Below, piece by piece: positions 14,747 through 60,850 of a stretch of 64,000 bases of DNA. The position numbers and the translations under genes were made by a program. The stretch lies in NCBI GenBank assembly GCA_951406725.2, contig OX597815.1:53878001-53942000 (forward strand). The letters are read 5' to 3'. This DNA is from Octopus vulgaris. Its lineage: Eukaryota. How positions within the stretch are numbered: the stretch's first letter is position 1; each line of letters begins with the position of its first letter. Below the pieces are notes generated by a model, which saw only the letters and a program-made list of their open reading frames with translations, was not told the DNA's origin and did no database searches.

Positions 14747-14847
14747 ATGCATAGTATGCGAATATATATATAACAGTATATGAAACTGATTATGAATTTA
14801 ATAATAATAATAATAATGATGATAATAATAATAATAAGAAGAAGAAG

Positions 14848-15587
<740 letters not shown>

Positions 15588-31267: not shown

Positions 31268-31883
31268 GAAACTCCTTGGTTTGGATTTGAAAACACTGAA
31301 AGTGAGAGCATACTCTTTCCGCTTCTCATCGCTTTCGAAGATCTGCTCATAACTAACAGTGCCAACAAACCCAAACATGCAAGCGAAGAATTTCTGTTCT
31401 CCCCTTTCCACCAGCGTGGGTTAAAATCAGCAAACACTCTGCTTATTTCGGTAAAATCCGAAGCATTAATTAGAGGGAGATTAATTATAATTTCAACAAT
31501 TGAGGGTAAAATTAATTAATTATTAATCAATTTCACCAAGTGTTACTAAGCCCTTTTATATATTGTAATAATTTGAATTCGCCTTAAATGGTCCCTTTGC
31601 ATACTGAACACTTGGTGAAATTGATTAATAATTAATTAATTTTACCCTCAATTGTTGAAATTATAATTAATCTCCCTCTAATTAATGCTTCGGATTTTAC
31701 CGAAATAAGCAGAGTGTTTGCTGATTTTAACCCACGCTGGTGGAAAGGGGAGAACAGAAATTCTTCGCTTGCATGTTTGGGTTTGTTGGCACTGTTAGTT
31801 ATGAACAGATCTTCGAAAGCGATGAGAAGCGGAAAGAGTATGCTCTCACTTTCAGTGTTTTCAAATCCAAACCAAGGAGTTTC

Positions 31884-35475: not shown

Positions 35476-35682
35476 GGGAAGGAAAGCTTTACGAGGAAAA
35501 CTGTCTTGCAGAGAATCAAAGTTTTCTGCAATTGAAATCTTATAATAAAAGAGTCTTGAAAACTACATTTTGGTAAAATTATATTTAAATTAGAATTTTT
35601 AAGAATTTTCTAGACTGTACTGTTTTTAATAATTGCTCTTTTCATTATAGGATTAGCAATATATAGGATGAGCAACAAAGTA

Positions 35683-35735
<53 letters not shown>

Positions 35736-35737
<2 letters not shown>

Positions 35738-36545
35738 TAAATGCAATGATAGTCGGTGCGGTACATGCCAATTAATTCATACCGGCCCATATATGAACAC
35801 AAAAACAGGGAAAATATTCACAAACGCGAACATGAACTGCAAAAGCAGAAATTTAATCAGATCAAATGCCCCAATTGTGAAGAACTGTATGTTGGCCAGA
35901 CAGGTAATGCACTATCAGAACACTCACGTATGCATCGACAACAAATCAAAAACCTAGGAGTCCGCCAAATACCACTGAGTAACCTTCTGGCAACATGTTT
36001 TCAGAAAACTTTTATGATATTTCCATTTCATAAACTTTACAACCTGAATGAAATTGAGAGAAAACTGAGAGAAAAGGATTTTATTAAGAAATTCAAACTC
36101 AAGCTTAACAAACAATGATTAAATTAATCTTATTTGGGGTTTAAAAATCTTATTCCTATAACTAAAATACAAAAAATCTCTAAAAGGTACTGCTGTCATC
36201 ATTTCTAAAAATTAACATTGAAAAATGGTTTGGCATCATTTCTAAGAATAGACAAACAACTACTATTGCTGTCCACAGGAACGTATATAAAGGACAAAAG
36301 ACAGCCAGTCAACCACAGTTGAAACACTCCTGTCACAACCTGGGACCTTGAATACTGCTTTAATGCAAGAAAGTATACTAGTCCCTTAATATTTGATATT
36401 CAGTATTTCATCTATTCAATAAGACAATCAATACTTCATTTCATTTTACTATATATACTATTTATACTATATATTCTATATTCTACATTAATATTATAAA
36501 GAATATAAATAAAAAATAAAAAACAGACTTGGAATTCCTTTAAAT
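35736..36545 (+). mobile_element. Penelope-like element 3' end (Neptune-type Cys linker plus GIY-YIG endonuclease, frameshifted) and 3' UTR
   Basis: KCNDSRCGTC...NMNCKSRNL / IKCPNCEELYVGQTG..HSRMHRQQI..ERKLREKDFIKKF.LKLN* (stop 36118). Confidence 0.88.
36342..36385 (+). ncRNA. Decayed type I hammerhead in PLE 3' UTR
   Basis: GGGAC-CTTGAATA-CTGC-TTTAAT-GCAA-GAAAG-TATA-CTA|GTCCC. Perfect stem I and palindromic loop III, but the CUGANGA core is mutated. Confidence 0.6.
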
Positions 36546-44376: not shown

Positions 44377-44756
44377 CGTACACGTATATATATATATATC
44401 TATATATATATATAAGAAAAAGAAAATGGAGATTGGGAAGTTGATAATTGTTTATTATTAACATAACTCAATAATCATCCTTTACAGTTGTTTCAATAAA
44501 AACTCAGTGAAATAATTAAATATTAAATTCATATGGCCTGGACATAATATCTTCAGAGGGAAGAGGGAAAAAAACATACGCTAGCATGTTTTATGTGTTT
44601 ATGGATTCATTATTTCAGACTGAATGATTTGTATTTTTATGTATGCGCGTGTGTGTGTATATATATAAATATAATAGAAATAATATATAAATATATGCAT
44701 ATATACATACATATACGTACATACCTACATATATATGTATATATGCATGCATATAT

Positions 44757-45597
44757 GGGTACAAGACATAAAAAAAAGTTGAACACAATGAGAAACGAAA
44801 ACCTAAAAACAAAAACATAGAAGCGAACCTTTTCGAACAACGAAAAAAAACAGGGAAAGGAGACATATAAAATGAAGAATATTCCTCTTCTTCAGTTGTC
44901 ACTGTTTCAACTACTCCACGTTACGAAGGCAAGGATAAGACGCGACTTCGTTCAAACATTCCTTCCGGCAAAGCAAGTTAAATATAAATTTGGGATGATT
45001 TGCGGAGGGTGAAAGTGGTAACAAGGGCAGGACAGTGAGAACAAAACAATAAAAACAATAAAAAAAGTAAAAACAGTAAAAGACAGAACAATGAGAACAA
45101 AACAGCAAAACAAACGGTGAGAGCTGTTACGTCATGACGATGGAAATATTATTCTGTACGTTAGGAAAACGAGCTTATGAAGGGACAGTATAAGCCCGTT
45201 TAGTCTTTACGAAGATTGTTGTCAGAAGATAGATTCACTCTCGTCACCTTTCAGCAACGAGAAAGTCGAGGAGGAGGAGTGAGAGAGAGGGAAAGGTGAA
45301 GGAGCAAGGAGAAGAATAGAGAAAGGTGGGAGATAAAACCAGAAAGGATGCAGAACAAGAGGGGGGAGAGATAGACATGGAAGACATAGAAGAGAGGGGG
45401 AGAGATAGGCAGAGAAGTTATTGAAGAGAGGGGGAGAGAGATAGACAAAGAAGACATAGGAGAGAGGGGGAGAGAGATTGACAGAGAAGAGATAGTAAAG
45501 ATAGAAGAGTGCGCATCGTAATTATTAAGATAAAACTTACTTGGAAAAGGATGCGTCTAACCCCGGTGCAATGTTTGTTCAGCCTTTGTAAAATCCC
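44757..45597 (-). mobile_element. Penelope-associated repeat: pyrimidine-rich minisatellite, 9-bp repeats, scrambled hammerhead, T-rich tail
   Basis: Bounded by TA-rich tracts. ~33-bp GA-rich units at 45355-45500 and AAAACA(A/G)TA units at 45040-45110. Same module order as 48315-49075. Confidence 0.55.
44889..45010 (-). ncRNA. Candidate non-circularly permuted hammerhead (decayed copy)
   Basis: Minus-strand order GAAGG...CGCGT-C|TTATC-CTTG-CCTTC-G(T)A-ACGTG-[16 nt]-GACAA-CTGAAGA. Confidence 0.55.
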
Positions 45598-45709
45598 TAT
45601 ATAAATATATATACATATATAAATATATATACAAATATATATATAAATATATACACATATAAAATATATATACATATACATATATAAATATATATACATA
45701 TATATAAAT

Positions 45710-45947
45710 AAATCACCACTGCATTTTCTTCCTAGCTCTGTGTGACCCCTCTGCCTGACATTCACCATGATAGATCCCTAGCCACTAAACCTTTTTCCAT
45801 TTTCTCTCCCTGTTTATTTCTGCATTCCTTTCTGTCGAAGAGCCTAGGCTCGAAACGTAAAAGACTTTCTCACTTCCGGAGCGTTAAACTAATTCATCTG
45901 TTTGTTGTTTACACACCCGTCACCGTCTTTTTTTTGCAAATTCTCGC
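45710..45947 (+). mobile_element. Penelope-like 3' fragment with minimal hammerhead-like motif (45828-45863)
   Basis: CTTT-CTGTCGA-A-GAGC-CTAG-GCTC-GAAA-CG-TA|AAAG. 3' end abuts (TA)n. Confidence 0.7.
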
Positions 45948-45961
45948 TATATATAAATATA

Positions 45962-48000: not shown

Positions 48001-48237
48001 ATAACATAAGGGACTAAAGCCATCTGAATATGGCTAGGGACAGGGCAGGGTGGTGGGGGTGTTACTGTTGCATTTAGCCCCCGAGCCTTTCTGGTGACGT
48101 CGATGTTCGCCTGGGGCTAAATGCAACAGTAACACCCCCACCACCCTGCCCTGTCCCTAGCCATATTCAGATGGCTTTAGTCCCTTATGTTATCGAGCAG
48201 TTACTGCCTATATCTCTTTTAGAGAATTATTATTGCT
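48001..48237. mobile_element. Short head-to-head palindromic insertion (perfect ~80-bp arms 48001-48080 / 48113-48192) between TA tracts
   Basis: ATAACATAAGGGACTAAAGCC...TTTAGCCCC mirrored exactly. Shares GAATATGGCTA..ACTGT..TAGCCCC with 52641-53042. Confidence 0.8.
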
Positions 48238-48314
48238 ATATATATATATATGGCGGTGCCCCAGCATGGCCACAGCTCATAGGCTGGAACTGGAATCAAT
48301 CAATCAATCATATG

Positions 48315-48867
48315 TAAAAAAACACAAACTGGAACAAGAACGCAAAACATTTAGAAGACGATACAAAAACACGGACGCGACATTCGAAGCCTTCAATCCT
48401 CAGTCAAGAACCGGATCATCCTCGCAATTTCGGCTGATTAATCTTGAGATTGCACCGACATGGCCAGCCCCAAAGGAAAATCTAAGCCAAGCGCATTAGA
48501 TTCCTTGGAAGAAAGCCTCGAATGTATACAAAACAAGGACGGGAACGAATAAGAATACAAAAATACGTAAAAATAATAATGATAACACGAATAAGAATAC
48601 GAAAATACGTAAAAACAATAATGATAATAATAATAACAAAAACAGGACGTCACAGACAGGCGTCTTTTCGACAGGACGGGTGAACTTGAGCTGGCGCATT
48701 GGAAAAATGCCTTGAGGCGAAGAGAATAAAAGATGTGTCTGACGTTGGCGGCTGCTGACCACGAAAAGGCAGGACAGTAGTCCAAAGTTAGACACGTGTG
48801 AGGAGAAGAGAGAGGAAAAGAGGGACAGAGGAAGAGAGAAAGAAAGAGAACAAGGAACAAAGGAGGA

Positions 48868-48907
<40 letters not shown>

Positions 48908-49075
48908 CAGATCAAAGTGGAGTGCAAAGTGTGAAAGGCAGTGAAATGTAGGAGAGGGGGAGAGAGAGAGACAGTGTTATAGAGTCGTACCAAGTTTAAA
49001 GAAAAAAGTACTTACATACGAGACCAAAAAGGGTACGGGCGCCGATCCTTAAAAGGATATTTGCATTGGGAACCA
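48315..49075 (-). mobile_element. Penelope-associated repeat with scrambled hammerhead
   Basis: Minus-strand order is possible ORF end (NILLRIGARTLFGL, weak), CT-rich tract, short tandem repeats (48545-48640), structured RNA 48380-48525, T-rich tail. Confidence 0.6.
48380..48525 (-). ncRNA. Candidate non-circularly permuted hammerhead ribozyme (intact core)
   Basis: GGCTGG-[10]-GCAAT-C|TCAAGA-TTAA-TCAGCC-GAA-ATTGC-[14]-TCTTGA-CTGAGGA, enclosed by the 15-bp stem ACATTCGAGGCTTTC/GAAGGCTTCGAATGT. Confidence 0.7.
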
Positions 49076-49079
49076 CTTC

Positions 49080-49255
49080 ACATCGACAACCGGTGATTGT
49101 CGCGCGCTGATGATGGGTCAATACCCAGAAACTCGGGTCTGGTTGTATCACGTCAGGTTAGAGAGGGGAATGATGGCTTCCCTTTACAAACACTGATAGA
49201 GCACAGAAAGTGTGTCAATAGCCAGCTGGAGGAGGTGTCTTCCTGGGGCTACACG
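49080..49255 (+). mobile_element. Older copy of the 52641-53042 HHR family; HHR at 49101-49145
   Basis: CTGATGA-TGGGT-CAAT-ACCCA-GAAAC-TCGG-GTC, plus shared CCAGCTGGAGGAGGTGTCTTCCTGGGGCTAC. TA tract follows. Confidence 0.75.
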
Positions 49256-49279
49256 TATAAGTGACAAATATACTTCACG

Positions 49280-52400: not shown

Positions 52401-52609
52401 CGCCATGTTGATTCGTTAGCTACTGCACGCATTTTTTTTCTCTCCTTCTTTCTGTGTATTTTTCTCTCTGTGTATCTTTCTGTTGAAGAGCGTAGGCTCG
52501 AAACGTTAAAGACTTGTTTTATTTATATTTCCTGAGCGCCATACTAATACAATTGTTCGTTTGTTTTCCACCTGCCTTCGTCTTTTGTCTATTTTCATAA
52601 AGCTTCCCG

Positions 52610-52643: not shown

Positions 52644-53042
52644 CAATGATAAATCTCAGAGCGAGTTATAAACAGTAGCGGCAACACATCGTGACGTATA
52701 TTTGCCATTTGAATATGGCTAACCCCTAAGGGTGGATGCTACTGTAGTTTGTAGCCCCAGGAAGACACCTCCTCCAGCTGGCTATAGACACACTCTCTGT
52801 GCCCTATCAGTATCTGTGAAGGGAAGTCATCCTTCCCGTCTTCAACTTATGATACACACGGACTCGAGTTTCAAGGTATTGACCTATCATCGGCGTGTGA
52901 CAATCACAGTTGTCGACGAGAAGTCAGTTCCCCTCACAAGTAGCGGCAGACAGCTGGAGGAGGTGTCTTCCTGGGGCTACAAACTACAGTAGCATCCACC
53001 CTTAGGGGTTAGCCATATTCAAATGGCAAATATACGTCACGA
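52641..53042. mobile_element. Head-to-head HHR element with perfect ~92-bp inverted arms (52689-52780 / 52951-53042) in (TA)n
   Basis: TCGTGACGTATATTTGCC...CCTCCAGCTG mirrored. TA tracts on both sides. Confidence 0.82.
52855..52899 (-). ncRNA. Type I hammerhead ribozyme (U4C variant)
   Basis: CACACG-CCGATGA-TAGGT-CAAT-ACCTT-GAAAC-TCGA-GTC|CGTGTG. 6-bp stem I, GUC cleavage triplet. Confidence 0.8.
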
Positions 53043-59879: not shown

Positions 59880-60850
59880 AGTTATTCTGATAAAGTTACA
59901 CAGCGCCATCTTTAGATTGTAGATAATCTCAGACCATTTGCATGGGGCAATAAAGGATAACAAACGATCCTATCTCAAAACAAACATTGTTCGAGATCGA
60001 AAATGCACTCAAACACTCGAATGAAAAGGAGAGGGCAGTAAAAGAAGCCAGGGCTGTCAAAAATAGATACGCAAAAGAGTCTGCTTCACTACGGTACAAG
60101 ATAGGGCCATAGTTCGAAGAAAATGGCTCGCCAACTGTAGACCCCAAGACGATCTGTGAAAAACTGAATGTGCAATACAAGAGCGCTTTCACCCCTCCAT
60201 TGGGACACATGCAAGTACCTATGCCTGATGAATTCTTCGGCACTACAACTCTACAGCAAAAAATGGCAATTATTGATTGCATCAAAATAGAGGAAACAGA
60301 TGTAATACCAGTCATTGATGAAATGAGTTCAAACTCGGCCACAGGCCCTGATAGATTCTCAGAATACCTCACAAAGAAATACAAATTTGCAACACCACTT
60401 CAGATTCTCCTTCAGAGGTTCCTAGCGACTGAGACTTCCCAAAAGTTACAGGAAAGCATAAGGAAGGTAGCAGAGCAGATGCTAAAAATTATAGACCTGT
60501 CTCTAATCTACTATGTCAGGAAAGACATGGAACGCATTGTTAGGAAGCAACTGATAATGAATTGCTCTATATCACCCAGCATGACTTCCGTTCAGGAGGA
60601 AGCTGCCATATACAACTTTTGCTGCATTATGAGTAGTTGTTAAAACACTTACTGAATCGCTGAAACCTAGATGTAATATATCTCGATTTTGCAAAGGCGT
60701 TTGATAAGGTTTATCAGGGATGATATGTCACAAGCTTTAGAGACTCAACGTAGCTGTGAATCTTAGAGAGTGCTTGCATGGCTTCTTAAAATTCAGAAGC
60801 TAGACTATCGCAGCCAAAGGAGTTTTCTCCAAGGAGACAAAAATAGAGTG
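59880..60850 (+). mobile_element. CR1-group LINE ORF2 remnant (linker plus RT N-half)
   Basis: SATGPD, KNYRPVSL, QHDFRSG.SC, LDVIYLDFAKAFDKV motifs with stops and frameshifts. Confidence 0.88.

Follow-up and report, generated by a model that had tools for sequence, protein, structure and literature searches.

A decayed repeat copy of Octopus vulgaris with a hammerhead-like core that is split between A9 and G10.1

The repeat at 44760-45598 and its ribozyme-like domain

The minus strand of the window, i.e., the whole 64-kb stretch of Octopus vulgaris DNA that was analyzed, carries at 44760-45598 a repeat copy that is composed of a CT-rich tract with 34-36 nt repeats, a unique stretch, a duplication with a spacing of 56 nt, a ribozyme-like domain, and a T-rich tail. 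TA tracts are present on either side, a trait that is not specific to Naiad retrotransposons. The module order proposed by the initial annotation (CT-rich tract, short tandem repeats, ribozyme, T-rich tail, TA) was recovered in this repeat as well as in a second element of the window (Table 1). A further copy of the 44760-45598 repeat was not found in the 64-kb window. Contigs from four public runs of three organisms were mapped to 44800-45300, and 1235, 51, 1398, and 1271 contigs were obtained, most of them 80-95% alike. Because the contigs are numerous and mostly diverged to this degree, the region was classified as a high-copy interspersed repeat; the contig depth is a sum over contigs and no measure of copy number. 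The claimed repeat family is thus real, with 51-1398 contigs per run covering the region in all four runs. One contig of run X4 is identical to 44846-45016 and spans the predicted cut, but that X4 represents RNA is a guess, and the contig is uninformative on strand and cleavage. Metagenome, genome, and viral contigs were scanned for the pattern, which yielded 9, 2, and 34 loci, respectively; none of these extended into the element.

On the minus strand of 44882-45013, a hammerhead core was identified in the order cleavage site, GAAA, CUGAnGA (S-G-C), and the stem II 5′ strand is located upstream. The scrambled layout described initially holds, with all strands at the expected places and with 5/5 pairs in stem II, 6/6 in stem III (44945-44940/44921-44916, two of them wobble), and 4/5 in stem I (44938-44934/44900-44896) of the window copy. 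GAAGG at 44965-44961 is separated by 16 nt from the stem III strand with its GUC, and another 16 nt lie between the downstream strands of stems III and I. The three stems surround the core with the pairs G10.1-C11.1 and A15.1-U16.1, both in the copy and in the family majority. The linker from stem I to stem II had been given as 4 nt; it comprises only 3 nt in the family, because stem I there has 6 bp. The copy contains CUGAAGA and GUC, but it carries GUAA and thus lacks the GAAA of the core. The A13U exchange abolishes hammerhead activity, and together with six mispairs in 44882-45013, it agrees with the earlier suggestion that this copy is probably dead.

Two helices were found beyond those annotated before, namely a 7-bp helix T, which connects stems I and II, and a closing helix P0. 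P0 begins directly after A9 and ends directly before hairpin P1. A9 is connected to G10.1 via P0 and P1, a break that lies inside block C. The hairpin P1 had been noted and exists, but its 3′ arm had been placed such that it shared two letters with the beginning of GAAGG; the true stem is listed in Table 1. Altogether, 32 of the 38 predicted pairs can form in the copy. The joint occurrence of T and P0 plus P1 was matched by 97 of 3000 shuffles in the case of 44882-45013 and by 219 of 3000 in that of the second element, a modest value as far as the window letters are concerned. The core was absent from the minimum free energy (MFE) folds of both elements; MFE folding misses it because the fold is pseudoknotted. 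In the MFE fold of the minus strand, the flank upstream of the domain (45017-45038) pairs with block G and the T strand (44898-44924), and this alternative would block the core in the copy.

Table 1. Coordinates of the two elements and of the predicted structural parts of the first one
Feature	Position	Strand	Pairing or basis
Host repeat copy	44760..45598	minus	ends set by flanking (TA)n microsatellites
P0, 5′ strand (4 bp and 3 bp around a bulge, with 44882-44888)	45006..45013	minus	6/7 pairs
Hairpin P1, 7-bp stem 45005-44999/44972-44966, ends right before G10.1	44966..45005	minus	6/7 pairs
Stem II, 5′ strand GAAGG (G10.1 = 44965)	44961..44965	minus	5/5 Watson-Crick with CCUUC 44925-44929
Helix T, 5′ strand, one nucleotide after stem II	44953..44959	minus	5/7 pairs with 44902-44908
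Block S: stem III strand 44945-44940, C17 44939, stem I strand 44938-44933	44933..44945	minus	
Predicted cut, after GUC	between 44939 and 44938	minus	by analogy
Linker of 3 nt (44932-44930), followed by block G: 3′ strand of stem II, GUAA 44924-44921, stem III strand	44916..44932	minus	
Helix T, partner strand, abuts stem I	44902..44908	minus	copy pairing and family majority
Block C without stem II strand: stem I strand 44901-44896, CUGAAGA 44895-44889	44889..44901	minus	
P0, 3′ strand, immediately following A9; stem II strand in the rival classical SGC fold as well	44882..44888	minus	
Second element, same split layout, intact core	48381..48524	minus	predicted cut 48448/48447
Host repeat around the second element (ends approximate)	48305..49270	minus	

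Database models did not assign the domain to a known family. No hammerhead model was found among the 20 Rfam matches in 44700-45950 or among the 150 of 244 window matches listed, and a Pfam analysis of nine frames located upstream, plus one as a control, gave no significant match. In a tblastn analysis with 151 Penelope-like proteins, which are of the C-terminal-endonuclease types and do not include Naiads, the only matches in the window were at 35667-36109. This plus-strand region is a fragment from the 3′ part of a Penelope-like ORF; it has a C-terminal GIY-YIG-type domain and 58% identity to P0015 over 83 aa. The open frames 14774-15388 and 60113-60643, both on the plus strand, are presumably fragments of non-LTR retrotransposons. 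Long, nearly perfect palindromes are present at 48001-48193 and 31427-31724.

Defects of the copy, the family majority, and the second element

The seven defects of the copy, i.e., A13U and the six mispairs, were compared with the family majority. In all four runs, the majority letter at each of the seven positions restores either the core or the pairing. The majority letter at 44886 accounts for 94-99% of the depth and makes P0 complete, and those at 44901 (97-99%) and 44936 (96-99%) each restore a pair of stem I. The sequence UUGUC, which had been predicted for stem I, is thus borne out, with the letter restored in 96-99% of the depth in 4/4 runs. The majority letters at 44953 (74-93%) and 44959 (77-94%) extend helix T to 7/7 pairs, and that at 44967 (79-93%) completes the P1 stem. 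Restoration of GAAA at 44921-44924 had also been predicted, and it is the majority state in 4/4 runs, but only by a small margin in three of them: among the differences listed, the GAAA letter at 44923 accounts for 55, 96, 52, and 56% of the depth in X2, X4, X8, and X9, respectively. The remaining share may represent a GUAA subfamily or a reference bias. In stem III, position 44918 changes a G-U to a G-C pair in 39-84% of the depth, and 44917 breaks a distal pair in 3-7% of the depth in the three larger, DNA runs and in 68% in X4.

The second element has the same layout at 48381-48524, with 14/14 pairs in P0, 7/8 in P1, 6/6 in stem I, stem II, and stem III alike, and six of the first eight in T. 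Its P0 junction has two unpaired letters on each side, and (TA)n also flanks this element. It had been claimed to differ in sequence from the first one, and this is correct, as blastn detected no similarity between the first element and the one at 48380-48525. A copy of its 5′ part (49068-49253) with 83% identity was found at 52690-53040. It lies in a structure with inverted repeats that is bordered by (TA)n tracts and resembles what Penelope-like insertions often show.

A descriptor of the layout (core, stems I-III, and upstream stem II strand) had two matches in the 64-kb window, namely the 44882-45013 copy and 48403-48469. Of 400 local dinucleotide shuffles, two contained one match and none contained two. 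This comparison is generous, because the descriptor was composed after both elements were known. The post hoc descriptor and the seven defects of the copy are what speaks for a chance arrangement in repeat-rich DNA. Chance is largely refuted by the correction of 7/7 defects in the family majority, and the absence of shuffles with two matches and the recurrence of the layout in unrelated Naiad sequences (see below) argue against it as well, so that its probability is regarded as negligible. The initial annotation had taken the covariation within the window as evidence for a structural class. The class appears to be real, but two copies alone are a thin basis, and the family majority and the Naiad consensi support it better.

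Comparison with known hammerhead types

The circular block order of hammerhead types I, II, and III was not found; the order at this locus is S-G-C. Eckert et al. 2023 have defined the blocks C, G, and S, and have assumed that each of them is uninterruptible (PMC10085705). They have validated the types SGC and CSG, the latter of which comprised two unique sequences (PMC10085705). The rows of HRIMA-1 in that study show a 5-bp stem II, one nucleotide after A9, and a 1-nt spacer to a contact helix that abuts stem I (PMC10085705). The domain described here resembles HRIMA-1 and its variants in the S-G-C order, the short linker from stem I to stem II, the 5-bp stem II, the contact helix abutting stem I, and the full core. 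As in type SGC, the family majority has a helix that links stems I and II at their outer sides (the 7-bp T) and a linker of 3 nt. In contrast to type SGC, block S is preceded by the stem II 5′ strand together with its T strand, and P0 and P1 separate A9 from G10.1, so that block C is interrupted and the stem II strand does not follow within 1-2 nt after CUGAnGA. In addition, the type SGC rows that were compared are metagenome or metatranscriptome contigs, whereas the sequence reported here is an animal repeat. The geometry of HRIMA-1 is matched by the family majority only when the upstream stem II strand is used.

An ordinary type SGC hammerhead could be formed instead if stem II made use of the strand after CUGAAGA (an inserted A followed by 44887-44884); the upstream match would then be incidental or an inhibitory switch. 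A classical descriptor indeed also matches the 44882-45013 copy, with 4 bp including one wobble, and one inserted nucleotide at that position occurs in known SGC RNAs (PMC10085705). However, the majority letter at 44886 turns U-A into U-G in the classical stem, yet completes P0. The classical descriptor has no match in the second element, whose 14-bp P0 locks the strand in question. Furthermore, in nine split Naiad ends inspected by eye, IIb is not the partner of the strand that follows A9. The ordinary SGC fold is therefore considered very unlikely.

The split layout is also related to type CSG. It has the same cyclic order and the T helix, and a shift of Tb-Ia-CUGAnGA to the 3′ end of CSG results in the layout described here; the difference is that block C is intact in CSG and split here. 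The minimal type I hammerheads of Penelope-like elements share the location near the 3′ end or pLTR and an extra nucleotide between 9 and 10.1, but have the classical C-G-S order, no pseudoknots, and a short stem III (PMC4209133). Because conservation of this extra nucleotide is seen among Penelope hammerheads (Cervera and de la Pena 2014, PMC4209133), the break between A9 and G10.1 is located at an insertion-tolerant site. As judged from the sequences, the form corresponds to a circularly permuted CSG/SGC that is opened where known SGC and Penelope hammerheads carry a single bulged nucleotide. Look-alikes of the Penelope-type minimal hammerhead were also noticed in the window at 45817-45865 and 52465-52515 on the plus strand; they have the classical order, one nucleotide after A9, and a changed A6 in both cases.

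The PK hammerhead of Zhan et al. 2024 is similar in that the stem II region is rebuilt via long-range pairing and an extra hairpin, but A9-G12 and G10.1-C11.1 are in one short stem-loop, and a reversed block order is not described in the part of that paper considered here (PMC11300833). It was rejected as a precedent, as A9 and G10.1 are kept in one stem-loop (PMC11300833). Non-LTR retrozymes are characterized by tandem units with type I hammerheads, whereas the 44882-45013 repeat is a single dispersed copy in the window and not of type I. A tested precedent for a break between A9 and G10.1 was not found in the open-access literature searched. Likewise, no report of a split block C was found in that literature (including passages of PMC13725137, PMC12192606, PMC544870, and bioRxiv 10.64898/2026.07.22.740005). 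By sequence comparison, the S-G-C order itself thus corresponds to a published type, and the split block C appears to be new within the literature searched.

Split and permuted cores at the 3′ ends of Naiad retrotransposons

Craig et al. 2021 have reported that the canonical hammerhead is absent from Naiads and that (TA)n is preferred as target (PMC8557442). They noted motifs named 'HHR_half_core' and 'HHR_core' in Naiad 3′ UTRs, at an odd distance or in an odd order (PMC8557442). The last ~600 nt of 33 of the 54 consensi (File S5, PMC8557442) were inspected by eye without an alignment tool, and the consensus names were assigned from the order in File S1 (PMC8557442). The split layout was observed in 9 of the 33 ends (Obim, Ovul, Esco, Amil, Anas, Bfor, 3_Chem, 2_Movir, and Plae), seven of which are distinct, as Obim/Ovul and Amil/Anas are nearly identical. 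The hosts are a ctenophore, cnidarians, an acanthocephalan, and cephalopods, and thus belong to four phyla. By eye, CUGAnGA, GAAA, and NUH are retained in 9/9 of these ends, while the helix sequences vary. Stem II is distinct for each, e.g., GACACC/GGUGUC, GGCUCC/GGAGCC, and GGCCCC/GGGGCC, and T (5-15 bp), P1 (6-9 bp), and P0 (5-8 bp) each have their own sequences. In all nine, the strand after A9 pairs with P0a. Weak members are Naiad_Bfor, with a 2-bp stem I, and Naiad_Esco, with G-U at 10.1-11.1.

The intact type CSG was seen by eye in six further ends of the 33 (Smim, Parc, 2_Nbra, 3_Nbra, Hpol, and Hcon), with T of about 9-16 bp. One end (Lpol) has the S-G-C order with an indistinct stem II, and no such core was seen within the last ~600 nt of the remaining 17. 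The ends of Naiad-1_Movir and Naiad-4_Chem (File S5) carry what we take to be a twister-like motif where sister families have a permuted hammerhead, which suggests ribozyme swapping. Two more conserved structured motifs were noticed at Naiad 3′ ends, one in CGi, Olur, 1_Chem, and 2_Chem, the other in Scon and Mmer; these are candidates for other self-cleaving RNAs. Several of the 'HHR_half_core' and 'HHR_core' motifs are the split or CSG forms described here, and were not folded or tested in the accessible part of the original study (PMC8557442). No report of permuted hammerheads in Naiads was found in the open-access literature searched.

The window families differ from the published Naiad consensi (PMC8557442). 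Five short motifs from the two window elements were compared with the supplement of PMC8557442; three were absent, and two occurred once each, neither in a Naiad record. Naiads are characterized by an ORF with an N-terminal GIY-YIG, a CxC motif, and an RT. Both elements are short and non-coding, and a Penelope-like protein remnant was found beside neither of them, although the queries were not Naiad proteins. The ribozyme reading could thus be right and the host nevertheless be another non-autonomous repeat, retrozyme-like or from another Penelope clade. This alternative, which concerns the host only, is considered doubtful, because the layout, the place near a T-rich 3′ end, and the (TA)n flanks agree with Naiads. 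A Naiad origin of the window family is moderately favored, and this is inferred from its architecture only.

The split-core fold is very probably conserved. A conserved fold does not necessarily cleave autonomously, and it could be a hammerhead-descended signal for the reverse transcriptase of the retroelement that is non-cleaving or protein-assisted. A related case is known, as the Poseidon hammerhead is assisted by protein and not required for insertion in vitro (PMC11167929). The low fraction of GAAA in three runs (52-56%) would also fit. On the other hand, the conservation of CUGAnGA, GAAA, and NUH despite helix changes across four phyla argues against such a signal, and sister Naiads have type CSG, a form that has been shown to cleave (PMC10085705). 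A loss of autonomous cleavage is hence regarded as unlikely, and by analogy, cleavage by intact members of the split form is quite probable.

Taken together, the likely explanation is that the locus represents a high-copy repeat in the form of a decayed and probably dead copy. The family majority would pair as a non-circularly permuted hammerhead with a block C that is split between A9 and G10.1, intact copies likely self-cleave near the 3′ end of a transcript, and this transcript would stem from a Naiad-type Penelope-like retrotransposon. From 5′ to 3′, the strands are ordered P0a, P1, IIa, Ta, (IIIb-NUH-Ib), the 3-nt linker, (IIb-GAAA-IIIa), Tb, (Ia-CUGAnGA), and P0b. The sequence, its pairing potential, the family majority letters, and the layout in Naiad consensi as seen by eye are directly supported, and the following mechanism would build on them. 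Stems I, II, and III would form the usual hammerhead core, and the junction of P0 and P1 would keep A9 beside G10.1 and substitute for the covalent link. Helix T may dock stem I on stem II as in type SGC. G12 and G8 would catalyze the reaction as in any hammerhead (PMC11300833), with a cut after C17 (44939). This cut would be located about 180 nt before the 3′ end of the element and might trim a read-through or tandem precursor RNA, a function that has been proposed for Penelope hammerheads (PMC4209133).

If this is true, the stated rule that hammerhead blocks are uninterruptible (PMC10085705) would be broken, and therefore, existing descriptors would miss a class. The apparent absence of hammerheads from Naiads would be accounted for, and the argument that these elements thrive without a hammerhead (PMC8557442) would be undone. 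Type CSG would grow from two sequences to several animal retrotransposon families, and a single bulge position would be a route between permutations. We consider it plausible that the split form is a seventh natural topology, in which the catalytic strand and stem II are joined only via P0/P1, and that it is an active ribozyme across ctenophore, cnidarian, acanthocephalan, and cephalopod Naiads. Together with type CSG in nematode and spider Naiads, it would then represent the missing Naiad ribozyme, and animal genomes would be the main home of non-circularly permuted hammerheads.
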